The notes under the pieces were generated by a model. It was not told where the DNA came from. It searched no databases and was given only the letters and a program-made list of their open reading frames with translations. A stretch of DNA of 64,000 nucleotides. It comes from a virus. Below are positions 3,781 to 60,616 of the stretch, piece by piece (positions within the stretch are counted from its first letter, which is position 1; each line of letters starts with the position of its first letter). The stretch is from positions 32,001-96,000 of IMG/VR virus record IMGVR_UViG_3300035670_000022; one strand, written 5' to 3'. Position numbers and translations under genes: made by a program.

Positions 3781-3810
3781 TAGACTTGGTTTAGAATTTG
3801 GAGTTTGTAA

Positions 3811-4239
3811 ATGACTTACACTGTTGTAGCTTCATCTCGGATTTATAGCTCCGATGATATCAATACGCAAAGAACAGACTTTAAGCTACCGTTGACGGAG
3901 TTTAGAGACGTTAGGACTGTTCAGCTGCCTAACGTTTTAAACTTTAACCTCGAAGAGAATACTACGTTTACGGTGGACTTGACGCAACACGGAACCTATC
4001 TGCGGATTCTAGCTTTGAAGTCCACTCGTCCAGTCGGATTGGAGTTGGTAACTGCTCAGGCTACCTACACTTATCCACCTATGACGTATTTTCAACAACT
4101 TTATGACAGTCCAGAACCTATGAGTGTCTCTCCTACTGCTTTGAACATTATTGTTCCGGCAGCGGCGACTGCTTCCATAAGTCCAGCCCCACCGAGATAC
4201 CCTAGGGCGCTGGTGGAGCTGTTTGTCTTTGCGGAGTAG
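3811..4239 (+). CDS. Hypothetical protein (opposite strand to the replication operon)
   Basis: 142-aa ORF preceded by GGAG and a TAGACT-N5-TAG motif. Confidence 0.6.
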   Translation: MTYTVVASSRIYSSDDINTQRTDFKLPLTEFRDVRTVQLPNVLNFNLEENTTFTVDLTQHGTYLRILALKSTRPVGLELVTAQATYTYPPMTYFQQLYDSPEPMSVSPTALNIIVPAAATASISPAPPRYPRALVELFVFAE

Positions 4240-15086: not shown

Positions 15087-15206
15087 ACAGCTTACTCTTA
15101 CTGGCTGCAGTCGTTGCTTGTCTAATTTCTGAACCGTTTACAATTTGAAGCAGTGGATTCCCCTCCACTGCTTTATTATTTTTTTGTGTCGTTTGGTATT
15201 TCAACT

Positions 15207-42535: not shown

Positions 42536-43240
42536 CTATTTAGGACGCCGTCCGCTTCCGACCACTTTCGTGGTGGGAGCGGACTTTGCCCCTTTAGGGG
42601 CACCGCCCCCGAAGAGGGCGGAAACGTCCTCTACTGCAACGCAGTCGAGGGCGGCGTGCTCGGAGGGCTCTGCCCCTCCCGAGCCGCAAAAGACTGCATC
42701 ACTGCAGTCGAGGGCTGAGATATACAGCCCGTACTTGCCGCCGGCGGCAAGTTGGAACCGTACGGTTCCTTGCACCCACACAGGGTGCTCCTTTTGCCGA
42801 ACGGCAAAAGACTTCGAGTCTGCTTTAGCCTCGAAGTGATATTTGACCAGTTGGTCAAATATCTCCTCTGCCCCTTCTGGGGCAGAGTCGAACGCCACCT
42901 TGGCGTTCAACGTGAACCATTGGGGTTTACCCCCAAGGTTCGCGTCCTTCTGCGGAAGGACGGATTTTGGGTCGACAGACCCATAATCCACAGCCTTTCC
43001 GTGAAGGCTGATGCACGTAAGTGCAAACGACAGCACGTAAGTGCCGTCGTCGTACAGCGACGCGTCGGTAACGGTAAGCCCGAAGGGCTTCCGTTGACCG
43101 AAGAGATCGGGACCGATCTCTATGCAACTGTGTCCCGTTAGGAGACACAGTTGCATAGGCAGTCCGGAGGACTGCAGGTAGGCAGCGGCTGCTGCTTTGT
43201 CTTCGCCGAAGGTGGAGATAACGGAAGTGACGGTAGTCAT
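42536..43240 (-). CDS. Hypothetical beta-rich protein with basic C-terminal tail
   Basis: 234 aa ending TTKVVGSGRRPK. Confidence 0.75.
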   Translation of the reverse strand: MTTVTSVISTFGEDKAAAAAYLQSSGLPMQLCLLTGHSCIEIGPDLFGQRKPFGLTVTDASLYDDGTYVLSFALTCISLHGKAVDYGSVDPKSVLPQKDANLGGKPQWFTLNAKVAFDSAPEGAEEIFDQLVKYHFEAKADSKSFAVRQKEHPVWVQGTVRFQLAAGGKYGLYISALDCSDAVFCGSGGAEPSEHAALDCVAVEDVSALFGGGAPKGAKSAPTTKVVGSGRRPK

Positions 43241-43277: not shown

Positions 43278-43360
43278 CACTTCTCTCTGTTTCTCCGGAC
43301 CCGAAGGGTCTGGAGACTCTCTCGAAGAGAGAGTTAAGAGTGCTTGCACTCTTCTCTGTT
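43278..43360 (-). promoter_or_regulatory. Tandem pair of putative phage promoters (43278-43291 and 43347-43360)
   Basis: Near-identical 22-nt repeats AACAGAGA(AG/GA)AGTGCAAGCACT. Confidence 0.7.
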
Positions 43361-43452
43361 CCGCTCGTTAGAGCGGCATAGAAGACTTAGGGACCCGCGC
43401 GGAATAGGTAATGAGTTAGCTAGTTAGCGGGGCTAACTAGCAGAGGGTGATA

Positions 43453-46400
43453 TTACGAGAATTGGGTCTCCATCCAATCCAAAGCGATATCTGAAGTGTG
43501 GTAGGAGTCGACTAGCATGCTCCACATTTGCTCTGATGTAAGTTCGGAGTTAAATTCACAGTCTGTTGCAAAGTAGACTAAATCAGCTTTAGGAAAGCGA
43601 CTAGGTCCGACATACAAAGCAGCTTTATGCTGAGCCGGAATAGCTGTTACTTTACCTTTGCTGACGTAATACATATGCAGAACTCCCGGGCGGTTTATAG
43701 TCAAACCCTGGCTTTTCATTAGAGTCATAGCAAAACAAGGGTGCGCCGGGATTTGTCGGAAGGTTCCTATGGGACGACCCGACTTATCTTTAGGCCCTTC
43801 AAAGTCTGCATAGTCTAGAGTGATGACTTGCTTAGTAGTGTCTAGACGCACGTTGATAGAGTTTTTACCTAGTTTGGTAACTACTCCTGTGCTTCCATTA
43901 GCTGCAATAAGTGCACCGCCTCCGTTCTGTATGTTCTTACGAATCATTACAGGCATATCGACGCAGAAAGTCATCTCTTCTTCAATTGGATTAAAGATAG
44001 TGACAAACTCTTGCTTCTCGCCGTCGTAGGCTTTCTTCAGATACCAGTCTCCGAATTTACCTGTGACGTGGGCGCGATACGACTTGTTGTCTGCACCGTT
44101 AGCGATCATCTCAGCGGTCTTGCGGCTATTGTGCCGTTTTACTCCGATATTGTTGAAGTAGATGTGGATAGCATCTTCCGGAGCTTTGGTGGTAACACTA
44201 GCATCAAAGCGGTCTTTGATTAAGTTACCTTTCACGCCGGTTAATTGCAGCCGGTCCATACGTAACAGGTTAAGACAATCTACCCAGGCTTTATCTCCGT
44301 CGGCACGGATATTGTGCTTCAGGTTTATCATGACGAAGTCTCGGCGCTTAACAAAACTGCCGTAGCTGACATTGTTCTTTGCCCCTTTGATGAACACAGG
44401 TTCAAAGAAGAGGGAGCCTTTAACAGGTAAGAACTGCATTGGATCCCCTACTAACAGCCATTGAATGTTGATACCTTCTTCTATCGCAGCATCTTCGATG
44501 ATGTTTAAGAAGCGGTTGTCTACCATGCTGACTTCATCAACGATGACCATGAGTGGGCGTTTACCCAGGTAGTTCTTGGCGCTCTTGAAGAAGCGACTGT
44601 CTTTAACGTCTGACTTGAGTAGGTGGTACTCTTCGTACTCGCTACACTTTTTGCTCTCTGTTTTTTCGAATCCCAATTTGAGACCGAACATTGAGTTAAT
44701 TGTGCCGTCCCCACCGACGTTCATCACTGAAGTACCTGTAGAGCCAACAATGACGTAGGGGAGTTTGAGTAAGTCAAAGATGTGACGCGCTACTTCGACA
44801 CTGTAAGACTTGCCGCCTCCGCCTACACCGGTCAGCATAATATTGCTGCCATTAATAGCTTCAGCTACGACGTCTAACTGTCGAGCAGTCATGGTTTCTA
44901 GAGCGGGTAGGTAAGACTCCTCGTCTATAGTCGCATTGACGTTGGTGATTGCGTCGATAGCGGCTTGTAGAGCCTCGGGCTTACGTTTACGGTCTGCTTC
45001 TATCTCCATTTGGACTTTGGTCTCCTCTTGCTTAGCTTTTTTCTGTGCGTGTTTGCGTACCTTTTTAAGTGAGGGTACGATCTTTTTGCCTTTGCTGTTG
45101 ACAACAGGCTTAACAGATCCTACCTCTACTGTTTTAGGTTCTACAGATTTCTGTTTTTCCGCAACAGGGGTGGGAGTCTCTACTTTAAGAGACACTGCTT
45201 TAGAAAGAGGGATGTCTTCTGGTTCATCCTCGGGGGCATACATCTCAAAATCAGAAGATGTATCTTCGTCCTCGATTTGATCTTCAGACTCTTCAGGCGC
45301 TGTTAATACGTCAGACGCGTCTTCTGTGGTCATAGGTTTATCTTCGACCACTTTTACCGATGACAAAGAGACAAAATTAGAGATAGGGATCTCGTCATCC
45401 ATCTCGTAGTCATCATCAAAGTATACGCCTGTAGACTGATCTTCTTCTGTTTCGGGAACAGCAGCGTCAAAGCTGTCGTCTTGAGTACTTGTACTTTTCT
45501 CTGTTTCTACTAGAACCACAGGAATAGACTTGTATAAGTCGGTGATCTTTGTATGTAGAGTCTCAGGCATATCAGGCACTGTCTCAAGAATCATTAGCAA
45601 CATAGCAGCAACTTGGTTACCAGGATCAGGAGTCGACATAGGCTCTGCTTTGATAGCGGCAGAAGTGGGTTCAATCACTTCCGGCTGGTTGGGAGTAGTT
45701 GTTACCTCAACAGCAGGTTGCTCGTCAGCTGCTTCATCAAGTTCTATTAGAGCAGCTAACAAGTCTTCCTTCTTGCCGTTTAACTTAGGAACGGTATGCC
45801 CCGCGTCACGGTACTCTTTTAGCGCCTCTTTGATATCAGAGTAAGACAGAGAGGAGTACACGTCAGAAACAGAAGAGTCAACATCAGCTTCGACTTCAGC
45901 TTCGACTTCAGCTTCGACTTCAGCTTCATCTACTGGTTTAAGAGCAGGGTGATTAGTGTCGACCATCCAGTTGAGCATCTCAATGATGAGATCGCCGTGG
46001 CAAGGCAAAGGTGCGCAGAAGCAGACTAAGTCTTTTTGCTCTGCGTAGAGGCGGGCTAACTCATTCAGCACAACGCTGTCATTAGCATCTACCTTCTCTT
46101 GTAGCCAAACACGGTACAGTTCATAACACTCTTTCCGTGTGCCGTGTTTTCCAACGACAGCCTTGTTTGCTAGAACGCTACCTTTCTTGCCTTTACCAGG
46201 ACGTCCTATATACTCACCAAATACGCTGTCACCGTTTTTGATGTTTAAGACTTTCATAGTGCAGTGTCCTTCAGAAGATGTAGGAGGCTCAGAGTCTGAT
46301 TTAGGTTTAACCATACGTACAGTGACGTTATAGCGGACACCTTCACCACCTTCGTTGCCTTCATAGCCGTGGCGGGCGTAGCGTTTGTTGCCATAGAAGA

Positions 46401-49400
46401 CAATCAAATCACCATCGCCTACCTCGTATTTCTCTCCGTCTATTTGGAAGATACCGCTCTGGCCGAAGCTGAAAGACACAATAGGAGCATCTACTTCTTC
46501 GTCTTTATCGACGTGAAGGTTCAGCTTCTGTGCGCCTGCATATCGATTAATTAGACAGGTTTGAGCCTCGTACCCATCAAAGATGTCCAGTTGGGCGACT
46601 ATCTTTTCAGCAGTCTCTTTTAGAATGTTAGGCATCTCAACCACAGGCGAACCAGACGGCTGAGTGTTAAGGTATCGACCTTTACCTTTATTCCATACCC
46701 AGAATTGCTGACCAGCACAGGTATAACTGTAGCTCTTGGCTGTAAAGCGCGTCTTCTCACCATCTTCAAAGGTCTCTTCAATGGCTGCTCGTAGCTCATC
46801 ATAGATTCCCTCGTCTTGGCAATAGGATTGCTGAATGTACAGCCCGTCTTCGGTGTATACCGTCAACTCTTCTTTGTCGGACTCGGTGCGAAGCGCGTCT
46901 CGAACTTTCATAAGAAGGACGCCTTGCATGTTCTTACCTTGACGTTTCTTATTCACGCCCCAGAACGTGTCCCAGGGAGAGAGGTGTACAAGGTCGATAT
47001 CTTCTGTTTCTAACAGTTGAGTACGAGCAGGCTCATGGCTGAATTTGCCAAGCAGGACCTCGTACATTACATCGACTTTTACTTGTTCCCAGTCTTTTCG
47101 TAGCCTTACTTTTGCACCTTTAGCCTTTGCCTGTTTACCGTTCATAGCCGCGAACTCTTTAATAAGAGCGTGGCTCGGGTTGAGCACTTTGGCACACTGA
47201 TAGGCTCCCTCTGCTGTTGCATACTCTACGCCTTTGTATGTACAGGGTGCCCCCAGGAAGTTACTAAACTCTTTATACGTAGGCGTATAGGAGTTAAATA
47301 AGATGCAGTCGCCTTCCCAAGTGTCTTTATCTGCCGGATGCTCTTGTTGGGCTTCTACTTCCTGTTGTGCTTTAAGCATAGCCACGTTGATCACAGTGGT
47401 GTTCTTAACACGTTTGATGTTCTTCTTGCTACCAGGAGAAACGCCGTCCCAGATGACGAGACTCTCATCACAGTTACGATGCATCTTTTCATCCCGAGCA
47501 GTGAAGTCACCGTAGACAGCATAGGTTTCAAAGTCACCTACATTGTTGCGGCATCCTTTGCGGGAAGAGTACCAAACGCGCACGTTGGTGACACCTTGCT
47601 CAAAGAGATAGCTTTGTACAAGCATGTCTACACCAGCAGCATCACCAACGTTGAAGTTAAAGCCCTGATCGATATAGCTGTCGATCACATCTAAGGCTTC
47701 TTCAGGTAGACGTTTGATAGAACGGCTGCCAGAGATCACCACTTGGGTGTGATTTACCTCTAACTCTTCCGTAGACGTATCCTCTTCAGTGTCAGAAGAG
47801 TCAACAGATTCACCGCCGTCTCCATCGTCGTTAGGCTCATCGTCGGTCGGCTCTACACCGCCGTCAGAGTCATCTTCATCAGAGTCGTCTTCTTCTTCTT
47901 CGGTAATACCATCGTTAAAGTTATGGATCACAGAGAAGAAGTTGTCTTTACTCTCTTCGACAGAGTGGATCTCTTTCAAGAAGAAGTTTAGGTCGGCATC
48001 AGACCACTCGAGAGTGCTGATTTGAGTGTAGTCGTACATCTCTTTACCGAGAACTTCGTCTAGCTGAGAGAGAGACATTAGCGGAACGTTGGTTTGAAGC
48101 ACTTTAGCCCCTGTGGGGTGAGACTTAAGTGCGTTTAGCCACGCTATACTTTCTTGATAGATGACAGTATCCCCAAAGTAGAAGTTACCGCGGCCACCTT
48201 GGAAGATCGTATAAAGCAAGTAGGAAATCCCGTAGGTGGGGGTCTCTTTACCTCGCTTAACTACGTAATAGTCTTGCAGGAGGTGCATAGCAATTGTTAC
48301 CTCTTCCGCTAATTCGCAGTTAGCGCCGAGTTCAGCCAACGTTTCTTCTACTTTGTCCTCTAGGGCACGCTCTAAACGCATTTCTCCCAGCAGGGTTTCT
48401 AGAACTGTGCAGTTAGCAACAGCAACCTCATCGGTAACATTGCATTCTCGCAGGTTCAGAACCATGAGGTCGATCGTCTTGGTGCGAGGCATATCCAGAC
48501 GGGTGCTACGTAGACGATCATAGGCTTCTGCTACATCAAAGCGAATAAACTCGTCATCCCAGTTGGATAGGATTCCATGTAGCTCTTGAGTAACTTCAGC
48601 ATTGGCAAAGTCTTTAATCTTAACGGACTGTTTGCTGCAGCCGTCGTAGATAGATTTACCAAACATGATCGGCTTTAAGAATCGTTCCCAGAGAGATACA
48701 CCGCCGGGGCTGAATCCGCCGAGCATAATCTCGTACACTTCTGCCAAGACCAGCATGAGTTTGTTGATCTGAGTTTGACGATACTTGTCTAGCTCTAAAG
48801 GCACGAATGCACTTAGACCTTCAACACCGTCTTCACCAAACAAGTCCAACTTATCTAACTCGCCGATGATGCTAACCGCAAGCATACCGAGCATGTATGC
48901 AGCGTACATAACACCAACACCGACGTGCTGAATGCTGTATGCCAGGAAGTTGTATTTGACTAGATCTGAGCTGTTGATCATAGCCTTCTCTGGCAGTGCT
49001 TCTGCTAACTTGTTGATAACTACAGATGCATCTTTGTAAGACTTGATGGTGTAGTGGTCAGCAGCGTAATCCCCGCATGTGGGAGAGAACATGTCCATAC
49101 CTATAGCAGCGGAGCGCAGTTCACGAACCTTTTCATAGGTGGTGATGTGCTTAAGGCTCAGGTGCTTACAGTGAGTGATAAAGTGGTTATCACCATCATC
49201 GTCACCACCGTCTAGGTTGACAGACATAGCACTGACGCCGAATTGTACGGGGCTAATCTCGTACGCAAGAAGAGTATTGTCTTGAACCTCATCAGCAAAA
49301 GGTACACGTCGTTGTCCAAGATAGACCTCGACAGTTTCTTTACCGGTTTCGGTCTCGACTTCAACTTTCTCCCATACCTCTTCGATTAAACGAACCCGTT

Positions 49401-52400
49401 CAATCGGACCCATAGGCATAGGCGCACGGTTACCGCACGTAATTACACCTTCGGCTACAGACTGGCGGTCTAGAGGAATACCGCTACGTAGACACTCTTG
49501 ATATGGAGAGGAGACGACGTTGGTTTCTAGAATCCAGACTTCTCCTACAGGAATAGCAGGGTGACCGATACGCTTCGCACCGACTGCTTTATCGCCAGAG
49601 AAATACTTGCGGGAGTTCTTAGATGTAGCTAGAGAGTTAAGCACACCGCCGACCTGGTTAAGGGCGATCTGTTGCTTTTCGCTACCACCATTGATACACG
49701 GGATAAGTATTTCGAAGAAGAACATGGAGACGAAGTCCAAGTTATCATCGCTCTTGCGAGTCAGCTTAGAAAAAGCCAGCATGGCAGGGAGCCACATGGA
49801 CACTTTACCTTCTCCGGTTTCAAAGACGAAGACCATATCCTGAGTTGCTTCGGCAACCAGGCGGAAGAGGTTGTCTTGATGCGGATCAATCTGTCCAGGC
49901 TCAATACCGACTTTGCGTAGACGCTCATCCATAAGATCCTGACACTCGTTGCTGGTGTCATCTCCACCAAAGCAGATGCCTTCTTCATCAACGATGATGG
50001 ACACTACTTTGAGATTAGGATTAATGGTATTCCCAGCATTGAACGCGGCTAGCGCTTTAGCACGGTACAGCGCTTCTTTACCGCAGGACACCATACGACG
50101 CTGCTCAGCCAATACATCTTCGTCGTCCCCAGCTACAATGCTCAAGGACATGATATAAGGCAACAACTGAACGGAGGTCGTTACGGCTTCTGCTACCGTA
50201 GAAGACTCGAATAGCTCTACGTTGTAGAGTTGAGCTTCAGGTACGGAGAGGTACATTACGCCACGTTGTGCGACTTCTACCACTTTTCCGTCTTTAAGAA
50301 CAAAGGCGAGAATGTTGCTTTCCCACTCAATTTCTTTCTGCTCAGAGACTACGTAGAGGTTATCTCCTAAGTTGGCTAATTCAGGTAGGTACTCTAAATA
50401 GTTCTCTACGTGATACCACGCTGCCTTCCGTGCTTTTTCGTTCTCTTCGGTGTCAGGAAGTAATCCGGCGGCTACTTTCTCTTGGTAGAGGTCATACATA
50501 ACACGACCCATACCTTCAGCCTGTATCCAGTGAAGCCAGCGGGCTTGACCGAAGATGCTGTCGAAGTACTTATACATCTCATCATAGATACCAGCAGCAA
50601 CAGCAGCGGGCTCGATGATAAGCACGGGTTTGCCGTCGACCAGATTCTCGTGTCCTACCAACTGACGGTTGATGTCAGAGATATATTCACGAAGGGTCTT
50701 AACCACGTCTGTTTCTACTTCGTTGTAGAACGCAGTGTTGGCAATTATGAAGCACATCGCATAGCCCAAGTCGAGCTTAAGGCTATCTTGCAGGTGTAGT
50801 CCGTGTACAGTGATCTCGTCCGAGTTAAGGTCAGAGTTTAGATCATTGAACAAGATAGCAGGCGTAGCCGTAAAGAACTGCGACTTGTTAACACTACGAG
50901 ACTTCATATCAAACTCGCGGCGTTTGATGAAGTACTCGATGCTGAGATACTCAGTGCTGTTATCCATACCGACAACAACGCGCCAGCGGAAGTAGGTTAA
51001 CTGACCCTCTACACGGTGTTGATGGTAGATGGGAATCGTTCCGTGTACGCCGAAGAGGATCTCTTTACCTGTTCCGTTAACGAGCACCTCATCTTGCGGA
51101 GTGACATACATCCAGCCGTCTTCGCTCTCTACACTGTCCCAGGTGTTTTCGATCACACCGGTAACATTAGTTTGAGTAAAGTCGAACGGAGAACCGTCTA
51201 CTATATCAAACGTGTTACGGACAATTAGAATGCGTTGATCCGGGTTTGCTTCCGGTTTGTCTTTCTGTTCACCCAAGAACGCGGACATACCAGGCAGGTT
51301 AACGTGGCTCGGCGCATAGGCAGTCTTATCTAACCAGCCGTAGGTGGCATACTTCTGGTCGATAAGTTTAGCCGCAGAAGGCTGCTCGTCTTTGACGCTC
51401 TCAGCTTGAGCCATCCACAAAGACACCCGCTTCAGGAGTTTCTTCGCCTTCAACGAGTTGACGATTACTTTTCCTGCTTCGATTTCGCAGCCAAAGTTGC
51501 TGACGATCTTAGCGAACAGGTTCGGTGCATGCTTGCTGACCAAGTCTAGATTGACGTGACCCAAGGCACCAGCAACAAACTGTCCTTTGGTGTGGTGGAA
51601 GTCTAACCCATACTGCTCATGGGCCATTTCCATCACAATGTCCATCACTTCAGCAATTTCGATAGAGTCATCAAAGACAGCTGCAGTTTCGATCATTTGA
51701 AACTCTTCGTCTATGTCTGCCTCTACACCGCTGTAGCGTTCAGGTAGGACTTTAGCAGCCTTACCCTCTAGAGCAACCCACTTCCCATTACTGTTCAGCG
51801 GTGTGCGCTCTTTGAACATCACGGTGGAGAAGGTGTTGATGAGCAAGTGGTGTGCAGCACCGTTTTGGTCTAACACTCGGTCCGTAGTCATCTTAAAGAT
51901 GTTGCCCATCTTTTGCAGACATGACTTCACATTCTCTAATGTGGTAGAGAAAATGCCGGCGCTGCCAGACCAGTTAGAGAGGATAGGCAAGTACACGAGC
52001 CAGATGAAGTACATAAACATACTCAGGCTGGTGACTAACTTGATTTCTACCTCGTAGGGGCTGCCCTTAGGATCGGCTTTCTTCTCTTCTTTTGTCTTTT
52101 TACGTCCGTTGACAACAAGACAGCTATTGAAAGCACGACCACGCCAGTCATAGACAGTACCGTCGTCATCGAAGTAGAAAGCAGCAGCGCCGTCTATCTT
52201 AAGCGCTTTCATGCCATCTATCTCTACGAAGTCCAAGACTCCTTTGATATCGACAGCCTTACGGTTACGGCTCCGCTTTGTCTTCTTACCAGCGACTTCC
52301 ATCATGTCTTGAATGATGGTGATAACACCTTCAATCTCAGACAGTTGCCAGTCGTAGTCTAAGATTGGCATGTCGATGGTTGAGCAGGCATACTTGTCCC

Positions 52401-55400
52401 GCTCAGAGCAGAACCCACGTAAGTAGTAGGCTACTGCGTAAGCAGCTTTTTGAGCAGCACTACATTTCGTAGGGGGCTCTTGTCCCCGGAACAGCTCTTC
52501 AAAGACTGCCGTTTCGTTCAGCATCATGTCGTTTACGACTTCTTCTACTGTATAGAAGTCCTCGCTACGATTTCCGCTGGTCGGGTGATTTAACGCCTCG
52601 TACAGACTTTGTAGCTCTTCAGCGTAACCAGCTAGAACTTTGGGTTCTGCTTTAGCCGCAGGAGGTGTCGGAGGAGTAGAAGTGACAGGAGGAGTAGCGG
52701 GCGGAGCAGCTATTTTAGAAGGAGTAGAAGTAGCTACTTTAGAAGGAGTAGACTTTGTCACTTCCGCTTTAGACTTCACGCGACGACGACCACTCTTAGG
52801 TAGAGAAGTAGTAGTCTTAGCAGAGCGCTCTAAGAACGTGAAGTAGTTGTTATCGCTCCGGGGAGTTTCGAAGTCGATTAACTCTTCTACTACATCGCAC
52901 GGAACGAAGTAGGCTTCAATCCGGTCGCAGTACGGACGGTATTGTCCTTGACTGAGAACACCGTTCTCGTCTGGACGACGATTATCCGTCAGAATATCTA
53001 CTCGTCCGACGAGAAGCAAATAGTATTGCTCCACTTCTAACCCAGGGATGCCTCCATGTTCGCTCTGCAGGTTATCTAACGAGTTGTGGACAACGATCGT
53101 TTGCCCATGTTTTTCTAGAGCGGAAACAAACCGTGTATTTCCTGTGTACACGGCTTTACGGATGATGTTCCGAACGGAAGAAGCGGTAGCGCCTGCTTCC
53201 GCACGACCTGCGACTTTGTCTTTAAGGTCGTGCTCGTTATTAACCAACGACTCGAAGTTCATATGGTGCGACACCTTGTCGTTAAACACCACATTTTCGA
53301 TGTTGGTGTAGGCAGCATCGCGGAACTGCCAACTTGCCTTCTTGGCGTTGGCGATCGGAGCATACAAACGAGCCGGGGTCGCTCCGATAGTAGAAGCAGT
53401 CCAACCTTCTTTAGCTTCTTGTTTGTAGTCGAAGCCTAAGAAGTTGCTGATGGGCAGCACCCGATGTTTGCTGTCGTCCGCCGCAGCATATAACTCGGCA
53501 TAGTGCGGTTTTGCTTTCGGCACAGGGTTAAAGTGTGCGTTAGCGTTACACCGCTGCTCTCCGTAGCGACAGAGGACTACATAGAGAGGATCGCTCTCTT
53601 GAATGGGAGCTGCGTCTACGTGCATTAATGTGAACGCAGGGATGCAACCCATCTCTTCAGGAGACTTAGTAAAGTGCATAGGAGCACCTACTTTTATCTC
53701 CATGTTTTTGTTTGCGCTATTACTGGTGCGACGCTTCATTGTTTGCTCCTTATTAATGGTAGCCAGTCCTATTTCTAGGGGTGTTACGCCTAGTTCGCTG
53801 ACAATGTCAGACCATTTAGATCCGTTTGTCAGCAAGGACCGAATGTTGCTTGCTGTCTCAGCGTCTACCAAGTCAGCTGGGTCAAAATGACCAGCACGGT
53901 AGACCTCCAGCAAATAGCTGGCGACAGTATCATCCTTGGTCTCACTCTTCGCCTCCTTACGGTAGGTAGATGCCAAGTCTGCTAGCATGTCCTCTAGCTT
54001 TTCTTCTGTTTTCAAGACACGTGTCCAGATGTCAATCACGATCTTGTGACGATGACTTAGCTGATTTTGTTCAGCTTTTGGTTTTTCTGTCTTTTTACTC
54101 TTCTCTGTTTTTGCTACAGGCTGTTTGTTAGGCACCCCGTAGTTGAGAGCCACTTCTAGGGAAGTAACTCCCAATTCCGTCTCTAGGTCTTTATAGGCCA
54201 CTCCTTCTGCCTTCAGATCTTGAATCTGCTCGTGTATCTCTGTAGATACATAGGCAGAGCAGTCTACCAACCCAGCGTCGTATGCTTTCTTTAGATACCC
54301 GACGATGGTTGAGTATGCCGCCTCACTTTTGTTAATTGCTCGGTAGCGTCGGACTAAGGAGTCCAACTTCTGCTGCAGATCGACGTTTTTAGCGTCTATC
54401 TTCTCCCACAGTTCAGCTATCTGCTGAATTGATGATGGAGTTTTCTGTGCGGACGTGGTCGGAGTTCCTCGTTTTTTGGCATACTTACTCATTGGACGCG
54501 GAGTTTTGCTCCGCTTGAAGACCATAGTTGCCTCCGGTACACCCTCTGCCGATGCAGCACATCGTGCCTCGGCGAGAGCCATAAACTCGGCCGGTACGGC
54601 CACGGGTTCAGATTCTGAACCGTTCAGAATCTCAGCCATGATGGCTGTCCCTGCGGCGTAGGCGGCTTCTGCCTTTTGTTCTTCCGTCTTATTGGCTAGG
54701 TAGACGGTTTTGTCTACCTTTTTGATGTTGCCAATCATCTTCCGACCTTCCGCCGCCCGGCGACGGTTTTGGATAGCGAGAGGCAACTCCGCCTCCTCTT
54801 GGGCGCGAAGGGCCCGTTGGCGACGGACTACAGAAGCCGGGATGGGGGCCTCGGTGCCGTTCGCCAACCAAATGGCGTTGTTACCTGCACGGAGGGCAGC
54901 GGACTTAGCGGCTTTGGTGATGACCGCATACTTAGCCGCCCGCTCGGATGCAATGTAAGCAGCCAGGAGTTTAGCCTCCGCCCGACGTTGGGCTTTGGCT
55001 AGTTGCTTCTCATACCCGGACTTAGTCTGGGGTTTGAGGTTACGGCGTTGTACCGCTTTGTTGCGACGTTGACGTTTAACCCGCTGGGTGCGGGCAATTG
55101 ATTGATTCACAGTCATTGATTTACGGACACGACGACGTGCCCGGGTAGAGGTGGTACCAACAGTGGTAGCGATGTCGGCAATGACATCAGCTACGGCGAC
55201 CATTACGGTCACGTTGGCATAGGCAAAAGTGCCCACACCGCCTGCACGTTTTTGTGCAGTGCCTTTGCGGGGGGCAGTGAGACGGAGAACCGCGTCCAAG
55301 GTGAATGCGGCACGGTTAGCCGTGCGGCGCTCAGTGTAGTGAGCAGAGATGACATCAGAGATGTCATTGGCTACGGCACCAGCGAATGCCATAGTAGCAG

Positions 55401-56001
55401 CGGTAGTGAGGGTAGCAGGGGCAAAGCGTACAACTTTGTGCGCAGTGTAGACACGGGGAGCACCCGTGGGGGTGCTGACGGTGTGGGTAGGGGCAACCCA
55501 GGAGGGTGCCGGAGTGGTGAATACACCTTTGAATCCGGGGGCAGCTTGCTTAGGAGCAGCTTTGGGAGCCCACACTACACGAGTGTTCCAAGCTGCTGCT
55601 TGGGCTGCCATAGGGTCAGCAACACCCCATCCTTTGATCTCCGCCATGCGGAGGTCAATATCACCAGCAGCGGTGATAGCGTCAGCGGTAGCTACAGCGG
55701 CAGCTACAGAAGAGGAAGCAGGAGCCTTGTAGCCAGTCCAGGTGCGGACTACATCCACCTTCTTGCCTTTCTTCTGCACGTGTACGTGCACTTTCCCGTA
55801 GTAGGAAAGGAACTCTTGGCGGGGTAGGCGGGCACCTACCGCAGAGTTCTTAATTACAGCGCCGGCGTTCCAGCGTTGGCTGGAACGGCTCCAGCTGTTA
55901 GTGTGTACGGTGCGCGGGGAGACCTCACGGACAGCTTGCTGAATCGAGCGAGCGAAGAAAGAGATAACGGAAACGGAAACGGACATTTTGAAGTTAGACA
56001 T
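43453..56001 (-). CDS. 4182-aa polyvalent protein: 2x HTH, putative single-chain two-barrel RNA polymerase, SLOG, NADAR, AlkB-like dioxygenase, DUF4326 and Pif1-like SF1 helicase
   Basis: DMKSRSVNK (~50881-50910), NRAP (49420-49431), GGDDDGD (49189-49209). ISGSR..VGDAAGVD; FSNF..TAEGAYQ..WG..GKNMQG.LLM.VR; LINRY..HVD..HG..RYNVTVR; YIGRP..LVCFCAPLPCHGD; GVGGGGKS, DEVSM, GDPMQF, KSQGLT. Confidence 0.85.
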   Translation of the reverse strand: MSNFKMSVSVSVISFFARSIQQAVREVSPRTVHTNSWSRSSQRWNAGAVIKNSAVGARLPRQEFLSYYGKVHVHVQKKGKKVDVVRTWTGYKAPASSSVAAAVATADAITAAGDIDLRMAEIKGWGVADPMAAQAAAWNTRVVWAPKAAPKQAAPGFKGVFTTPAPSWVAPTHTVSTPTGAPRVYTAHKVVRFAPATLTTAATMAFAGAVANDISDVISAHYTERRTANRAAFTLDAVLRLTAPRKGTAQKRAGGVGTFAYANVTVMVAVADVIADIATTVGTTSTRARRRVRKSMTVNQSIARTQRVKRQRRNKAVQRRNLKPQTKSGYEKQLAKAQRRAEAKLLAAYIASERAAKYAVITKAAKSAALRAGNNAIWLANGTEAPIPASVVRRQRALRAQEEAELPLAIQNRRRAAEGRKMIGNIKKVDKTVYLANKTEEQKAEAAYAAGTAIMAEILNGSESEPVAVPAEFMALAEARCAASAEGVPEATMVFKRSKTPRPMSKYAKKRGTPTTSAQKTPSSIQQIAELWEKIDAKNVDLQQKLDSLVRRYRAINKSEAAYSTIVGYLKKAYDAGLVDCSAYVSTEIHEQIQDLKAEGVAYKDLETELGVTSLEVALNYGVPNKQPVAKTEKSKKTEKPKAEQNQLSHRHKIVIDIWTRVLKTEEKLEDMLADLASTYRKEAKSETKDDTVASYLLEVYRAGHFDPADLVDAETASNIRSLLTNGSKWSDIVSELGVTPLEIGLATINKEQTMKRRTSNSANKNMEIKVGAPMHFTKSPEEMGCIPAFTLMHVDAAPIQESDPLYVVLCRYGEQRCNANAHFNPVPKAKPHYAELYAAADDSKHRVLPISNFLGFDYKQEAKEGWTASTIGATPARLYAPIANAKKASWQFRDAAYTNIENVVFNDKVSHHMNFESLVNNEHDLKDKVAGRAEAGATASSVRNIIRKAVYTGNTRFVSALEKHGQTIVVHNSLDNLQSEHGGIPGLEVEQYYLLLVGRVDILTDNRRPDENGVLSQGQYRPYCDRIEAYFVPCDVVEELIDFETPRSDNNYFTFLERSAKTTTSLPKSGRRRVKSKAEVTKSTPSKVATSTPSKIAAPPATPPVTSTPPTPPAAKAEPKVLAGYAEELQSLYEALNHPTSGNRSEDFYTVEEVVNDMMLNETAVFEELFRGQEPPTKCSAAQKAAYAVAYYLRGFCSERDKYACSTIDMPILDYDWQLSEIEGVITIIQDMMEVAGKKTKRSRNRKAVDIKGVLDFVEIDGMKALKIDGAAAFYFDDDGTVYDWRGRAFNSCLVVNGRKKTKEEKKADPKGSPYEVEIKLVTSLSMFMYFIWLVYLPILSNWSGSAGIFSTTLENVKSCLQKMGNIFKMTTDRVLDQNGAAHHLLINTFSTVMFKERTPLNSNGKWVALEGKAAKVLPERYSGVEADIDEEFQMIETAAVFDDSIEIAEVMDIVMEMAHEQYGLDFHHTKGQFVAGALGHVNLDLVSKHAPNLFAKIVSNFGCEIEAGKVIVNSLKAKKLLKRVSLWMAQAESVKDEQPSAAKLIDQKYATYGWLDKTAYAPSHVNLPGMSAFLGEQKDKPEANPDQRILIVRNTFDIVDGSPFDFTQTNVTGVIENTWDSVESEDGWMYVTPQDEVLVNGTGKEILFGVHGTIPIYHQHRVEGQLTYFRWRVVVGMDNSTEYLSIEYFIKRREFDMKSRSVNKSQFFTATPAILFNDLNSDLNSDEITVHGLHLQDSLKLDLGYAMCFIIANTAFYNEVETDVVKTLREYISDINRQLVGHENLVDGKPVLIIEPAAVAAGIYDEMYKYFDSIFGQARWLHWIQAEGMGRVMYDLYQEKVAAGLLPDTEENEKARKAAWYHVENYLEYLPELANLGDNLYVVSEQKEIEWESNILAFVLKDGKVVEVAQRGVMYLSVPEAQLYNVELFESSTVAEAVTTSVQLLPYIMSLSIVAGDDEDVLAEQRRMVSCGKEALYRAKALAAFNAGNTINPNLKVVSIIVDEEGICFGGDDTSNECQDLMDERLRKVGIEPGQIDPHQDNLFRLVAEATQDMVFVFETGEGKVSMWLPAMLAFSKLTRKSDDNLDFVSMFFFEILIPCINGGSEKQQIALNQVGGVLNSLATSKNSRKYFSGDKAVGAKRIGHPAIPVGEVWILETNVVSSPYQECLRSGIPLDRQSVAEGVITCGNRAPMPMGPIERVRLIEEVWEKVEVETETGKETVEVYLGQRRVPFADEVQDNTLLAYEISPVQFGVSAMSVNLDGGDDDGDNHFITHCKHLSLKHITTYEKVRELRSAAIGMDMFSPTCGDYAADHYTIKSYKDASVVINKLAEALPEKAMINSSDLVKYNFLAYSIQHVGVGVMYAAYMLGMLAVSIIGELDKLDLFGEDGVEGLSAFVPLELDKYRQTQINKLMLVLAEVYEIMLGGFSPGGVSLWERFLKPIMFGKSIYDGCSKQSVKIKDFANAEVTQELHGILSNWDDEFIRFDVAEAYDRLRSTRLDMPRTKTIDLMVLNLRECNVTDEVAVANCTVLETLLGEMRLERALEDKVEETLAELGANCELAEEVTIAMHLLQDYYVVKRGKETPTYGISYLLYTIFQGGRGNFYFGDTVIYQESIAWLNALKSHPTGAKVLQTNVPLMSLSQLDEVLGKEMYDYTQISTLEWSDADLNFFLKEIHSVEESKDNFFSVIHNFNDGITEEEEDDSDEDDSDGGVEPTDDEPNDDGDGGESVDSSDTEEDTSTEELEVNHTQVVISGSRSIKRLPEEALDVIDSYIDQGFNFNVGDAAGVDMLVQSYLFEQGVTNVRVWYSSRKGCRNNVGDFETYAVYGDFTARDEKMHRNCDESLVIWDGVSPGSKKNIKRVKNTTVINVAMLKAQQEVEAQQEHPADKDTWEGDCILFNSYTPTYKEFSNFLGAPCTYKGVEYATAEGAYQCAKVLNPSHALIKEFAAMNGKQAKAKGAKVRLRKDWEQVKVDVMYEVLLGKFSHEPARTQLLETEDIDLVHLSPWDTFWGVNKKRQGKNMQGVLLMKVRDALRTESDKEELTVYTEDGLYIQQSYCQDEGIYDELRAAIEETFEDGEKTRFTAKSYSYTCAGQQFWVWNKGKGRYLNTQPSGSPVVEMPNILKETAEKIVAQLDIFDGYEAQTCLINRYAGAQKLNLHVDKDEEVDAPIVSFSFGQSGIFQIDGEKYEVGDGDLIVFYGNKRYARHGYEGNEGGEGVRYNVTVRMVKPKSDSEPPTSSEGHCTMKVLNIKNGDSVFGEYIGRPGKGKKGSVLANKAVVGKHGTRKECYELYRVWLQEKVDANDSVVLNELARLYAEQKDLVCFCAPLPCHGDLIIEMLNWMVDTNHPALKPVDEAEVEAEVEAEVEADVDSSVSDVYSSLSYSDIKEALKEYRDAGHTVPKLNGKKEDLLAALIELDEAADEQPAVEVTTTPNQPEVIEPTSAAIKAEPMSTPDPGNQVAAMLLMILETVPDMPETLHTKITDLYKSIPVVLVETEKSTSTQDDSFDAAVPETEEDQSTGVYFDDDYEMDDEIPISNFVSLSSVKVVEDKPMTTEDASDVLTAPEESEDQIEDEDTSSDFEMYAPEDEPEDIPLSKAVSLKVETPTPVAEKQKSVEPKTVEVGSVKPVVNSKGKKIVPSLKKVRKHAQKKAKQEETKVQMEIEADRKRKPEALQAAIDAITNVNATIDEESYLPALETMTARQLDVVAEAINGSNIMLTGVGGGGKSYSVEVARHIFDLLKLPYVIVGSTGTSVMNVGGDGTINSMFGLKLGFEKTESKKCSEYEEYHLLKSDVKDSRFFKSAKNYLGKRPLMVIVDEVSMVDNRFLNIIEDAAIEEGINIQWLLVGDPMQFLPVKGSLFFEPVFIKGAKNNVSYGSFVKRRDFVMINLKHNIRADGDKAWVDCLNLLRMDRLQLTGVKGNLIKDRFDASVTTKAPEDAIHIYFNNIGVKRHNSRKTAEMIANGADNKSYRAHVTGKFGDWYLKKAYDGEKQEFVTIFNPIEEEMTFCVDMPVMIRKNIQNGGGALIAANGSTGVVTKLGKNSINVRLDTTKQVITLDYADFEGPKDKSGRPIGTFRQIPAHPCFAMTLMKSQGLTINRPGVLHMYYVSKGKVTAIPAQHKAALYVGPSRFPKADLVYFATDCEFNSELTSEQMWSMLVDSYHTSDIALDWMETQFS
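54096..54109 (-). promoter_or_regulatory. Intragenic copy of the putative phage promoter
   Basis: Exact AACAGAGAAGAGTA inside the giant ORF, upstream of TAAGGAG-N6-ATG at 53739. Confidence 0.55.
54613..54629. promoter_or_regulatory. 17-bp palindrome TTCTGAACnGTTCAGAA, copy 3 (intragenic)
   Basis: Arms extend to 10 bp (54611-54631). Confidence 0.5.
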
Positions 56002-56113
56002 AATAAATGCGCCCCTAATATGGCGCTTTAAGGTTTTTATTTAGACACTTCACTTTTGAGAGGCTGTGAGAACCTACAACGACTAATACGCCTCGTTGCT
56101 GGCAAGACAGCTT

Positions 56114-56347
56114 CTAGCCAAAGTACCGGGGGCTAGCCGTAGCTTTGCCCTCGGTGATGTTGGCAATGACGCTAAAAACAAAGTTGGGGGCCAGTTTAGC
56201 GGCCAAGGAGACCTCGGCCAAGATCGAGGCATAGGTATGCCCCGTAACTTGAGCGATTGCTCGCTCTACTGAGATGGCTACGCCGTAGGCGACGTAGAGT
56301 ACCGCCAAGACGGCGGTGTAGATGAACAGAATGTTGAGAATGTCCAT
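56114..56347 (-). CDS. Small membrane protein
   Basis: ATG 56347 after GGAG; TM helix. YGVA.SV...TGH shared with 57256..57561. Confidence 0.6.
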   Translation of the reverse strand: MDILNILFIYTAVLAVLYVAYGVAISVERAIAQVTGHTYASILAEVSLAAKLAPNFVFSVIANITEGKATASPRYFG

Positions 56348-56515
56348 AGTTGTTTCTCCAACTAGAGGTTTACATGTAGTTTTGAGTGGTTCTACAAACC
56401 AATCGGGACTAATAGCCCACCCGACTGGGCACAACAAAAGGGGACCCGCCTAAGCGAGACCCCTAGATAGACATAGCAAGCTATAATCTACTTATTCAAT
56501 TTAGAGGTAATAAGT

Positions 56516-57809: not shown

Positions 57810-59183
57810 CTATATACGATTAAGCTCTACCATCGGTGGAGGTCCTGCGCGTCGGGACATCTCTGCGAGGACAACCTCGTGGCGGATTTGACGCTGCCAT
57901 GAGTATGAGTCGCAGAAGCGTTGGAAGTACACTAAACGATTGATGAGTGCACGGTCATCTAGTGTTGCGTACTGTTCCTCAACCTCGAGGCGGAACATCT
58001 CTTCCACCGTAAGGGCCTGTACTATCTCCTGAGGAGCTCGAGACTCGAAACCGCCTAGGGGAGCTTCATATGCCTCCTCGTCGAAGACCTCCCAGCCCCG
58101 GTGGGCGAGGGAGTTTGCTGTGGTGACAGGTGGTGTCTGCCATCCTTCTTTCCACTCTTCCAGCCGACCCATATCGGGAGTGTATTCTGGACAGACCTTT
58201 AGCCACTCATCCATGTGGTCTACCCACGTTTTGATGAGTTTGAGATTGTCCAGTACCCCTTGTGCAGAGGAAGGGGAGAGGAAGGCACGGATCTCCACCG
58301 TGTTTTTGTTCCCCTCATTCAAGGCCACATATCGTGACTCTGAATATTGGCGATACTCGCACCACTTATTGGGATACCGCCCACACAGGAGGCTGATATA
58401 GGGAGTTACAGACCCATCAAACAACCCTCGTAGAAACTCGAGTTGTTCTTGAGTCAAGCCCTTACGGCTCAAATGCACGTGCATCCCAACCCCGGAGTGG
58501 GCGTCGAGAGTGGTATTAGCCGAGAGCAGCTTATCGAAGCTGCTTGCCACCTCGGTAATACGACGAACCATATCGTCATAGGTATAGGGGAGAGTGACAT
58601 ACTCCCCGTCTACCGACGAATCAGCTTTAAAGATGCCCATCCCGAGCAAAGGATAGAGGTCCTGCAAAGAGTAGTTGGAGTGATTAAACTCCAGCTCCAC
58701 ACCGTACAACAACTCTTTCGAGTTGATTACCTCCTCCCGTTTGTGGGAGTGAGCAAGAGACAAGACGTCCTTGCTGTAATTCCACACTTTCTGCTCGGGC
58801 TGAGCAATGTCTCCATACCGTACAGCGGGGACATACTGCTGAGCGGAGGGAAGCAAAGATGCCACCTCCTCTATACAGACCTCGATGAGATCTGACAGAA
58901 TATGGTAGGCCTCCCCGTTTACGCCCATCTCAGGTAGACGTTGCGTGTCATACCCTCCGCATTCGACTCCATTCTCATTCACCTCCATATAGAAGGAGTT
59001 GGAGAATTCGTTATCCCCGAGGGAGATAACGATGGTTTGGGCAGCAGCGTTGGAGGTAGATACGAAAGACATAATTGATCCTGGCACTATTGCAGTTCCC
59101 GCATAGGTTAATAACCTGTCTTCTTTTCCACCGTGTATGGACAGGTAAACACGACAGACTTTGTTTGGAATCGCGTCTGCCAC
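57810..59183 (-). CDS. Putative amidoligase (COOH-NH2 ligase type 2)
   Basis: YGVELEF, DSSV.GEYVT, GMHVHLS, RY.ALN...TVEIR.F. Confidence 0.75.
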   Translation of the reverse strand: MADAIPNKVCRVYLSIHGGKEDRLLTYAGTAIVPGSIMSFVSTSNAAAQTIVISLGDNEFSNSFYMEVNENGVECGGYDTQRLPEMGVNGEAYHILSDLIEVCIEEVASLLPSAQQYVPAVRYGDIAQPEQKVWNYSKDVLSLAHSHKREEVINSKELLYGVELEFNHSNYSLQDLYPLLGMGIFKADSSVDGEYVTLPYTYDDMVRRITEVASSFDKLLSANTTLDAHSGVGMHVHLSRKGLTQEQLEFLRGLFDGSVTPYISLLCGRYPNKWCEYRQYSESRYVALNEGNKNTVEIRAFLSPSSAQGVLDNLKLIKTWVDHMDEWLKVCPEYTPDMGRLEEWKEGWQTPPVTTANSLAHRGWEVFDEEAYEAPLGGFESRAPQEIVQALTVEEMFRLEVEEQYATLDDRALINRLVYFQRFCDSYSWQRQIRHEVVLAEMSRRAGPPPMVELNRI

Positions 59184-59958: not shown

Positions 59959-60537
59959 CTACATTAGTAGCTTCTTAGCTATAGCCCACTTCTGGGCAGA
60001 TACCTGCCCTTCGAATGAGCGCAGTAGGAGCGCCCAATCGTGTTTTACCCGCTTTTCCCACATGTTAGGTGGGAGGTGGTGCCCCTCCTCCGCAAAGGAG
60101 AGGTCTATCAGTCGTGCCCCTTCGGGCCAGACCAATATGTTGTTCGCATGGCTATCGCCATGCGTCCAACCGTGGGCATGTAGCCCACTTAGGGCTGCAC
60201 AGGCGTGCAGTAAGAGCACGCCAAAGGTATACGGGGAGGTTCCCGTAGAGGTAGCAACCTCTAGCAAGGTGCGCCCCCGCACCTTCTCGAGCACCAGCCG
60301 TGTGCGGCTGGAGTCTGGGTGCATCTTTGGGATGATGCTTCCCTGAAGAGGGTGGAGTACTCCATATATGAGATACTCCTCTTGGAGTTCATCCTCTGCC
60401 CAGCTATCCCCGGGCTTAGCGTTTTTAACCACCCATCCCCGGGTGGTAGATTCGGTCACGAGACCGAATCGCCCCGACCCAATGAGGGGGGTAGTAGCGG
60501 TAGTAGCGGTAGTAGCGGTAGTAGCGGTAGTAGTCAT
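59959..60537 (-). CDS. Ser/Thr protein kinase-like protein
   Basis: IGSGRFG, VVK, E (helix C), HGDSHANN, IDLS. N-terminal (TAT)n from a 9-bp repeat. Start is 60537 or 60561. Confidence 0.8.
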   Translation of the reverse strand: MTTTATTATTATTATTPLIGSGRFGLVTESTTRGWVVKNAKPGDSWAEDELQEEYLIYGVLHPLQGSIIPKMHPDSSRTRLVLEKVRGRTLLEVATSTGTSPYTFGVLLLHACAALSGLHAHGWTHGDSHANNILVWPEGARLIDLSFAEEGHHLPPNMWEKRVKHDWALLLRSFEGQVSAQKWAIAKKLLM

Positions 60538-60616
60538 TTGATATGCACTGTCACAGGGCATGGATTAGCTCGGCTGTGATGGCATAAAAAAGGCCCCCTA
60601 GAAGGGGGCTATATTT

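Follow-up and report, generated by a model that had tools for sequence, protein, structure and literature searches.

A giant phage protein joins a two-barrel RNA-polymerase-like core to a Pif1/Dda-type helicase through a variable cassette of SLOG, NADAR, AlkB, and DUF4326 domains

An uncultured phage with a 156-kb genome carries a single uninterrupted gene for a protein of 4,182 residues, in which an RNA-polymerase-like core is followed by SLOG, NADAR, AlkB, and DUF4326 domains and by a C-terminal helicase. Among relatives, it is the helicase that stays with the core, and the intervening domains form a variable, permuted cassette, a pattern that the initial annotation of this DNA had not described. 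We propose a polymerase-helicase machine whose swappable cassette would rid the single-stranded template or RNA of adducts inflicted by the host, a proposal in which we place about equal belief and doubt. Coordinates refer to the window, the 64,000-nucleotide stretch of phage DNA that was analysed (Table 1), unless genome positions are stated.

Results

The initial annotation had described one fused reading frame, and this was borne out: the frame contains no stop or frameshift, and Logan contigs from three runs span it with zero insertions or deletions. Population substitutions from other samples are largely silent (10 of 12 synonymous). The gene occupies genome positions 75453-88001, 24 kb from the head genes for portal, protease, and capsid (genome positions 112983-119769), and its operon also holds kinase-like, amidoligase-like, and small genes with no assignment. 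Family searches with the two directly flanking genes returned no match, although both have counterparts in relatives; the upstream gene is 47% identical to L002 466-789 and 32% identical to L001 6823-7056, and the downstream gene is 39% identical over 213 residues to L002 13225-13899. A second giant protein of the phage is encoded next to the head genes instead. The genome also encodes a family-A-type DNA polymerase and a UvsX-like recombinase.

Table 1. Features of the giant gene and its direct neighbours within the window
Feature	Position	Strand	Residues	Basis or remark
Whole gene	43453..56001	-	4,182 codons	ORF analysis and Logan contigs
107-residue gene directly upstream	56114..56437	-		Kept beside the giant gene in relatives
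Two-barrel RNA-polymerase-like core	48082..51204	-	1600-2640	Fold and motif
Acidic linker 1	47758..47910	-	2698-2748	53% D+E, no K/R
SLOG domain, YAcAr/DUF2493-like	47371..47745	-	2753-2877	Fold and transitive HMM
NADAR, AdfN/gp30.3-like variant	46867..47310	-	2898-3045	PF08719
AlkB-type 2OG/Fe(II) dioxygenase	46306..46746	-	3086-3232	PF13532
DUF4326	45979..46221	-	3261-3341	Cys/His motif CFCAPLPCHGD
Short helical motif read as SAP-like	45739..45852	-		Pfam SAP not significant
Acidic, Pro/Ser/Thr-rich linker 2	45082..45726	-	3426-3640	24% D+E, 29% P/S/T
Pif1/Dda-type SF1B helicase	43456..44904	-	3700-4182	Motifs I-VI
234-residue gene directly downstream	42536..43240	-		Kept beside the P0002 giant gene

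The premise that the enzymatic domains lie behind an RNA polymerase is supported by both fold and motif. In the core, a bridge-helix region comes after two DPBB domains, and the structures that match the core best are those of RNAP largest subunits, QDE-1, and RDR2; PolD was absent among the matches listed. The second barrel carries a DxDxD-type motif that reads GDDDGD, GDYDGD, GDFDGD, and GDWDGD in P0001-P0004 and is encoded here, as GDDDGD, at 49189-49206 on the minus strand. Its G, D, D, G, and D positions do not vary among 13 giants, and across 25 sequences G667 is nearly invariant. Searches of the core against Pfam, PHROG, and PDB profiles returned no match to a characterised RNAP, and hhalign of the core against phi14:2 gp66 gave a probability of 0.05.

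The identities and order first proposed for the following domains (SLOG-NADAR-AlkB-DUF4326-Pif1) agree with Pfam, PHROG, PDB, and fold comparisons, and the positions agree within a few tens of bases. NADAR, AlkB, DUF4326, and the helicase each scored above the relevant cut-offs in per-domain HMM searches, SLOG was recovered only via homologues and fold, and alignments and motifs revealed intact catalytic signatures in all five. The acidic linkers, also described earlier, are evident from their composition. However, the short helical stretch that had been read as a SAP/Rho-N-like HeH motif did not reach significance against Pfam SAP, where it scored 13.5 bits (cut-off 23.9; E 0.057) and matched only positions 21-36 of the 37 in the profile; the stretch is about 35% identical in P0002.

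The NADAR domain matches PF08719 over residues 2906-3038 (E 3e-24; 86.6 bits against a cut-off of 35.1) and TIGR02464 (80.3 bits against 73.7), and its PDB match by sequence is YbiA (1.2e-15). The E...K of TAEGAYQCAK is kept in the alignment with YbiA, and the last strand reads LVH where YbiA has LVE, so that His stands in place of Glu. His at this position is a feature of AdfN-type phage NADARs (PMC11125620, PMC11257639). With the Pfam model Phage_30_3 the domain scored just 19.6 bits, below the cut-off of 36. We assign the domain to the phage AdfN type and predict from its sequence that it acts as an ADP-ribose-base glycohydrolase. Phage NADARs strip ADP-ribose from DNA and defeat DarTG1 (PMC11257639), but when taken out of their native context neither T4 AdfN nor E. 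coli YbiA relieved the toxicity of DarT1 (PMC11125620, PMC11257639), and sequence therefore does not reveal the specificity of a NADAR.

The AlkB domain matches 2OG-FeII_Oxy_2 (PF13532) over residues 3089-3229 (E 1.7e-21; 77.8 bits against a cut-off of 31.2), with E. coli AlkB as its PDB match by sequence (7e-12). The Fe(II) triad HxD...H and the 2-oxoglutarate arginines of RxNxTxR are all kept (LHVDKDE, ARHG, and RYNVTVR against LHQDKDE, YHG, and RYNLTFR in E. coli), as they are in P0002 and P0003. NCBIfam equivalog cut-offs for AlkB were not reached (66.9 against 267), and the domain is therefore regarded as a family member and not as an orthologue of E. coli AlkB. DUF4326 follows with matches to PF14216 (E 3.6e-14; 53.6 bits against a cut-off of 25; profile positions 11-82 of 82) and PHROG 464 (1.9e-22). 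At the C terminus, residues 3496-4138 match PHROG 325, a Dda-like helicase (E 5.5e-39), and residues 3708-3860 match AAA_19 (E 2.3e-7; 31.5 bits against a cut-off of 25.1), whereas Pfam PIF1 gave only 17.7 bits against 25.9. The PDB match by sequence is Bacteroides Pif1 (8e-9), and motifs I, II, III, IV, V, and VI are present as GVGGGGKS, DEVSM, GDPMQFLPV, NIR, KSQG, and YVGPSR.

Direct searches with the SLOG stretch were negative, with YAcAr in Pfam at E 0.14 (12.4 bits against a cut-off of 28.2) and no match in NCBIfam. Homologues of this stretch (P0005-P0007 and a domain of P0004) match PF10686 (YAcAr; 7.9e-14) or PF02481 (DprA; 3.2e-6), and the motifs GSR, GDAAGVD, and WDGxSPGS are present, with G11, G39, A41, G43, and D45 invariant, including the glycines and Asp of the ligand loop. 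An AF2 model (pLDDT 91) is Rossmannoid, with strands 1 and 2 each leading into a Gly-rich loop, and its top PDB folds are YpsA, ShosA, LOG, DprA, and the ThsA SLOG domain (probability 0.94-1.0). Homologues, motifs, and modelled fold thus support, in three ways, the SLOG-like identity suggested by the initial annotation.

The family was surveyed through 92 representatives at 50% identity, some of which are fragments. A C-terminal helicase lies behind the core in 32 of these and in all 13 further giants. The fusion is not obligatory, because about 60 representatives, fragments among them, have no visible fused helicase. It is nevertheless retained between proteins with as little as 29% identity, which argues that the physical linkage is beneficial. 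By contrast, NADAR, AlkB, SLOG, and DUF4326 occur sporadically and in permuted order among relatives and are gained or lost independently of each other; AlkB is placed in front of the core in one relative, and a decayed SLOG remnant is found in one relative.

Discussion

In our explanation, the protein is built on a conserved pair, a two-barrel RNA-polymerase-like core in a single chain with a Pif1/Dda-type 5'-3' helicase at the C terminus, and the flexible acidic linkers between them carry swappable small enzymes. The cassette of this phage comprises a SLOG domain of the nucleotide-binding or N-glycosidase type, an AdfN-type NADAR, an AlkB demethylase, and DUF4326. Pif1-family helicases travel 5'-3' on single-stranded DNA, and both AlkB and DarT1/NADAR work on single strands. 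In the mechanism that we propose, the helicase would track 5'-3' along the non-template strand and expose single-stranded template for the core, with the tethered enzymes cooperating, within what would be a full-length protein, on the exposed strand and possibly on nascent RNA. Their predicted targets are DarT1-type guanine-ADP-ribose and methyl adducts of the 1-meA/3-meC type, and the cassette may also process the released ADP-ribose products. If unwinding and adduct removal were to occur in this way, transcription of the phage genome could therefore go ahead even where the host marks or damages DNA that enters it. The lesion-clearing, unwinding transcription machine envisaged in the initial annotation would fit these single-stranded DNA and RNA-adduct substrates as well as the polarity of Pif1.

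A stronger version, which we hold only tentatively and consider rather unlikely, is that the protein represents a new family of single-chain two-barrel RNAPs fused to a co-directional helicase and cleaning its template while unwinding, in a transcription-coupled manner. If this were true, two direct-reversal repair enzymes, the AlkB demethylase and a glycohydrolase for ADP-ribose-guanine, would allow transcription of DNA that the host had chemically marked for silencing. For the polymerase-helicase machine that we favour, if it is correct, a helicase in cis would explain how phage single-chain two-barrel polymerases cope with duplex DNA despite their preference for single strands. The transcription machine itself could then carry counter-defence enzymes, and the rapidly changing cassette would read out natural attacks on DNA or RNA, ADP-ribosylation and methylation among them. 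Almost nothing in the family is annotated; it offers NADAR, AlkB, DUF4326, and SLOG variants as a source of enzymes and gives a testable context for DUF4326.

Alternatively, the cassette may act as a scavenger of small molecules, which we judge unlikely. SLOG, NADAR, and DUF4326 would bind and degrade soluble immune signals or toxins derived from ADP-ribose, such as the cADPR isomers of Thoeris-type systems or ADPr-1''P; the tether would only secure their early presence in the right place, and AlkB would be an unrelated addition. Iyer et al. 2022 found that SLOG-Macro-NADAR-DUF4326 fusions recur in DNA viruses and predicted that they process soluble ADP-ribose derivatives, which differs from the lesions on DNA that our mechanism would address (PMC9503650). 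The match of our SLOG model to the cADPR-binding ThsA domain and the independent appearance and disappearance of cassette members are also consistent with scavenging. However, AdfN-type NADARs are known to act on ADP-ribosylated DNA (PMC11257639), and this one is flanked by AlkB and placed between polymerase and helicase, all of them nucleic-acid enzymes. Moreover, neither a Macro nor a Nudix domain was found in the protein by Pfam.

Retention of the core-helicase fusion across distant relatives also weighs against the view, improbable in our estimation, that the long ORF serves for delivery or expression and not as a working unit, its parts acting separately after cleavage at the acidic linkers or expression from internal promoters. 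The disordered acidic linkers are long, many relatives lack the fused helicase, and the genome encodes a head-maturation protease, but no protease site was seen in the protein itself and no protease domain was found there by Pfam. A promoter-like 14-mer occurs in 13 copies in this phage (about 0.06 sites would be expected by chance in the whole window), and two copies lie on the coding strand inside the giant ORF, at 54096 and 45492, where they could yield shorter products. The latter (45492-45505) is located in linker 2 just before the helicase, yet no convincing ribosome-binding site with a start codon follows it. Activation of gp66 by cleavage or refolding has been proposed, and crAss-like phages have both fused and split forms (10.1101/2020.03.07.982082). 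It is very improbable that the core is a two-barrel replicative or priming polymerase of primase-helicase-like type with a cassette for replication-coupled repair. In favour of this view, fusion of a polymerase to a helicase is characteristic of replication, PolD, a DNA polymerase of archaea, belongs to the two-barrel superfamily (PMC7281927), and the operon lies outside the structural module. However, the structural matches of the core favour RNA polymerases, the phage has its own DNA polymerase and recombinase, and the 13-copy phage-specific motif calls for a phage-encoded transcriptase.

The polymerase-helicase machine that we favour resembles several known systems in part. Viral SLOG/Macro/NADAR/DUF4326 fusions (PMC9503650; also PMC7824862) place the same domain families in one phage chain; sporadic SLOG-SF1 helicase fusions are mentioned in that work (PMC9503650), in which a counter-defence role was predicted. 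Those proteins are mostly small and stand alone, whereas here AlkB is present, Macro is absent, and the set lies between a two-barrel core and a helicase in 4,182 residues. T4 AdfN (gp30.3) and the anti-DarTG1 phage NADARs share the NADAR fold and a catalytic Glu and Lys spaced as E36/K43 of AdfN, and the His that replaces the last-strand Glu of YbiA is common to T4 AdfN and the giant protein; AdfN, however, is a single-domain early protein, and the NADAR described here is embedded in a giant chain. Polyvalent proteins (Iyer et al. 2017, PMC5512222), whose name the initial annotation applied to this train of domains, are likewise very large, with several unrelated effector domains on linkers and rapid domain turnover, but they are defined by portal/MuF linkage and virion delivery, and the giant gene is distant from the portal; the text of that paper makes no mention of AlkB, NADAR, or SLOG.

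Betaflexiviridae replicases, arranged as MTR-(AlkB)-protease-SF1 helicase-RdRp, also combine a polymerase, an SF1 helicase, and a sporadic AlkB in one product, and in carlaviruses AlkB occurs sporadically next to the SF1 helicase and polymerase (PMC6364481). The role assumed for this AlkB is to protect the template from methyl damage (PMC6364481, which cites van den Born 2008, PMC2553587). These are plant RNA viruses, however, whose palm polymerase is RNA-dependent and whose replicase is processed by proteolysis, and a link to the giant protein, if any, would be convergent. The two DPBB domains per chain, the DxDxD-type motif, and the giant size are shared with phi14:2 gp66 (6VR4), P23-45 gp96 / gp64, and P74-26 gp62, although neither sequence nor profile comparison links the core to gp66 or to any chain in the PDB. 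As in the virion and non-virion pair of P23-45, a second giant polymerase candidate is found here beside the head genes. Finally, phi14:2 gp66 makes transcripts from single-stranded or denatured DNA but not from double-stranded DNA, and the eukaryotic QDE-1 depends on the QDE-3 helicase and RPA (10.1101/2020.03.07.982082); QDE-1 needs its helicase in trans, whereas the giant protein carries its helicase in cis.

Results

The giant gene lies on a single contig of 155,913 bp from a tailed phage, of which the window is a part and which also encodes tail fibres, a PhoH-like protein, a family-A-type DNA polymerase, a UvsX-like recombinase, a sigma-like protein, a portal, a head protease and a major head protein. 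It forms a single open frame, covered without indels by Logan contigs from three runs of one subsurface-metagenome study. Missed stops or frameshifts, which the initial annotation had considered as a source of artefact, were not found against these contigs, and thus the ORF is one real gene. Short contigs from an oyster metagenome of another study differ from it at 11 sites. When all runs are pooled, 10 of the 12 substitutions are synonymous; the GDDDGD codons hold two of these silent changes, and the helicase and the second linker hold one each. The gene is under purifying selection along its whole length. The listed sequencing runs include no RNA data set.

Near-identical pieces of the giant gene, with 0-3 differences per 151-239 bases, were observed in oyster metagenomes (window 43300-56200; runs X5, X8 and X9), where the shares of X8 and X9 are small (0.07 and 0.05) and the base-level comparison comes from X5. 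This phage, or one very closely related to it, occurs beyond one habitat, in oyster samples as well as in the subsurface samples of a different study, which contain the whole contig. Directly after DUF4326, a short EAEV-coding tandem repeat is present at which the Logan contigs from each of the three runs break off, and this repeat is common to unrelated contigs. A 784-letter joint at 49434/50198 was attributed to another organism and not to the giant gene, because the match of its high-depth contig spans only 32 letters, 3 of them mismatched.

Features of the giant gene and its surroundings (L002, locus of the related giant protein P0002; L001, locus near the related giant protein P0004)
Feature	Window position (strand)	Residues	Position elsewhere	Remarks
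Sigma-factor-like gene	15153-16154 (plus)			PHROG 351, 7e-64
Gene directly downstream	42536-43240		L002 13225-13899	~234 aa
Giant ORF	56001 to 43453 (minus)			4,182 codons
Core (modelled part)		1600-2640
SLOG-like stretch		2753-2877
NADAR		2898-3045
AlkB-type domain		3086-3232
DUF4326		3261-3341
Helicase		3700-4182
Internal 14-mer	45492-45505 (minus)			coding strand
EAEV repeat	45886-45927
Tandem duplication	about 53707-54420	528-640, 655-765
Internal 14-mer	54096-54109 (minus)			coding strand
Gene directly upstream	56114-56437		L002 466-789; L001 6823-7056	77-107 aa
Amidoligase-like gene	57810-59183		L001 4267-5346 (48% identical)	two genes upstream
Protein-kinase-like gene	59959-60561 (minus)			200 aa
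Second giant ORF			genome 99630-111599 (outside window)	3,989 aa; DYDGD motif
SLOG remnant of P0003		2984-3026 (of P0003)

The N-terminal 2,750 residues have no match in Pfam, PHROGs, NCBIfam, PDB or GenBank phages. Searches of GenBank phages by tblastn returned none for the N-terminal 2,700 residues or for the related giant protein P0022, relatives were not found in an IMG/VR scan with the core alignment as query, and a PDB profile search with the 25-sequence core alignment was empty. In the genome of Microcystis phage Ma-LMM01, the core profile had no match and the helicase domain matched just one separate frame of 392 aa (1e-6), which may reflect limited sensitivity. Three giant relatives were obtained from a large protein collection, and the core profile gathered 92 representatives at 50% identity, of which 63 score under 1e-10. 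Among the core relatives GDxDGD is invariant, and both an R-x-P-M motif 75 residues upstream of it and a K-x-R-x3-K / D-x2-K-x-D pair N-terminal of R-x-P-M are conserved. The AF2 model of the core, built from 25 sequences, has a pLDDT of 79.8 and a pTM of 0.78. Foldseek E-values for this model were all non-significant; the list consists mostly of RNAP beta-prime-type subunits, AR9 nvRNAP, vaccinia RNAP, P23-45 gp96, QDE-1, RDR2 and 6VR4, with moderate and mutually consistent scores, and the conserved Asp motif falls in the second barrel. Judged by its predicted fold, the core is very probably a two-barrel RNAP. It was not filed as a crAss-type virion RNAP, since hhalign against phi14:2 gp66 found nothing. 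The N-terminal region also carries a tandem duplication of a helical module of ~110 residues, whose copies are 31% identical over 113 aa (E 2e-14) and for which a family search was empty.

Behind the core, per-domain searches reproduced the domains of the initial annotation almost base for base, with the exception of its SAP/Rho-N motif, which was not significant and gave no convincing alignment with the N-terminal tandem repeat. Both linkers described there as acidic are strongly acidic in composition. NADAR scores 86.6 bits in Pfam and lies above the TIGR02464 cut-off; in the alignment with E. coli YbiA, the Glu and Lys equivalent to T4 AdfN E36/K43 are kept, and a His occupies the position of the last-strand Glu of YbiA, which is the mark of the AdfN/gp30.3 group of phage NADARs (PMC11125620, PMC11257639). 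The AlkB-type domain retains HxD, the second His and RYNxTxR in alignment with E. coli AlkB; since it scores far under the equivalog cut-off of NCBIfam, it belongs to the family without being an orthologue. DUF4326 is well over its cut-off with its Cys/His motif retained, and the helicase has all six SF1 motifs, with matches to the Dda-like PHROG 325 (5.5e-39) and to Pif1 structures (8e-9). The SLOG-like stretch is the sole domain without a direct Pfam call. Its homologues, collected by searching the stretch alone and aligned, match YAcAr in three of six members (best 7.9e-14) and DprA in two, and its AF2 model (pLDDT 91) has YpsA, ShosA, a LOG protein, DprA and the ThsA SLOG domain as best PDB matches. 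On these grounds we accept it as a predicted SLOG domain of the YAcAr/DUF2493 kind.

When 97 collected proteins were searched with each domain of the giant protein, the helicase was found behind the core in 32 relatives, and a Pfam scan placed it in 13 of 13 further giants. The domains between core and helicase are sporadic and permuted in order: NADAR-AlkB-SLOG in P0002, AlkB with a 34-residue SLOG remnant in P0003, AlkB-NADAR in P0008, NADAR only in P0009, AlkB ahead of the core in P0018, NADAR ... DUF4326 in P0025, SLOG only in P0030, and DUF7831, RNase H or amidoligase domains in others. Polymerase plus helicase is thus the constant unit, and the intervening domains form a fast-turnover cassette. 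In P0003, only the first ~34 residues of SLOG (VVISGSRSIKEIPDEALDV) are left, followed by unrelated sequence; this is a cassette member in decay, and it shows directly that a domain has been lost in place.

PHROG and Pfam searches of the neighbouring genes were almost empty, and the small partner genes beside the giant gene are each without a known family. Distant relatives nevertheless share the order of genes here, with the small gene directly upstream of the giant gene, the ~234-aa gene directly downstream and the amidoligase-like gene. An Amidoligase_2 domain is fused into the giant protein of one relative, which argues for a functional link between the amidoligase and the polymerase-helicase. 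The operon of the giant gene, which also contains the amidoligase-like and kinase-like genes, precedes a series of small promoter-headed genes. The kinase-like product matches Pfam Pkinase (1.7e-5) and Kdo/WaaP (5.6e-5), both near or under cut-offs.

Discussion

Each domain family of the giant protein is already known, as are SLOG-NADAR-DUF4326 fusions, single-chain two-barrel phage polymerases and giant multi-domain phage proteins. A two-barrel polymerase joined in a phage to a Pif1-type helicase and NADAR or AlkB was not found in our literature search, and the family of the giant protein is sizeable and appears to be undescribed in the literature searched.

Pif1/Dda helicases travel along single strands in the 5'-3' direction, which on the non-template strand is also that of the polymerase. 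The substrate of AlkB, DarT1 and NADAR is single-stranded nucleic acid. The helicase would feed template to the polymerase and expose the very substrate of the tethered enzymes. Single-chain two-barrel polymerases of phages and eukaryotes transcribe ssDNA well and duplex DNA poorly, and QDE-1 requires a helicase and RPA (10.1101/2020.03.07.982082). Phage NADARs have been shown to free phage DNA of ADP-ribose and to overcome DarTG1 (PMC11257639). In carlavirus replicases, a sporadic AlkB adjoins an SF1 helicase and a polymerase, a convergent precedent for this arrangement (PMC6364481). Because of these properties we favour, at about an even chance, a transcription machine with on-board cleaning of template or RNA.

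It is rather unlikely that the cassette instead handles soluble ADP-ribose signals, as was predicted for SLOG/NADAR/DUF4326 fusions (PMC9503650). Separate products, arising by cleavage or internal starts, are less probable still. They are favoured by the promoter-like 14-bp motif of this phage (AACAGAGAAGAGTR, also written AACAGAGAAGAGTA), which occurs 13 times in the window, each time on the minus strand, versus 0.06 expected. The giant ORF itself contains two copies, both encoding T-E-K-S in low-complexity linkers; the copy just upstream of the helicase is identical to an intergenic variant at 37897. These internal copies may be promoters that yield shorter products. A replicative role for the core is improbable.

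Polyvalent proteins are virion-delivered by definition (PMC5512222), and AlkB, NADAR and SLOG are absent from the text of that paper. The second giant ORF is divergent from the portal, head protease and major head protein genes, and after it comes a PHROG 'virion structural protein'; no sequence relation between the two giant proteins was detected. Packaging of the giant protein is put no higher than one half, since the head module adjoins the other giant ORF and the giant gene is 24 kb away; as a packaged polymerase, the product of the second giant ORF is the stronger candidate. Among the tail-fibre genes, a sigma-factor-like gene is present, and therefore the phage may also redirect the host polymerase, besides having two polymerase candidates of its own. 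The kinase-like gene of the operon is reminiscent of kinases for host takeover, T7 gp0.7 among them, and the layout of the two giant ORFs resembles that in P23-45, where a virion polymerase is paired with a non-virion one.
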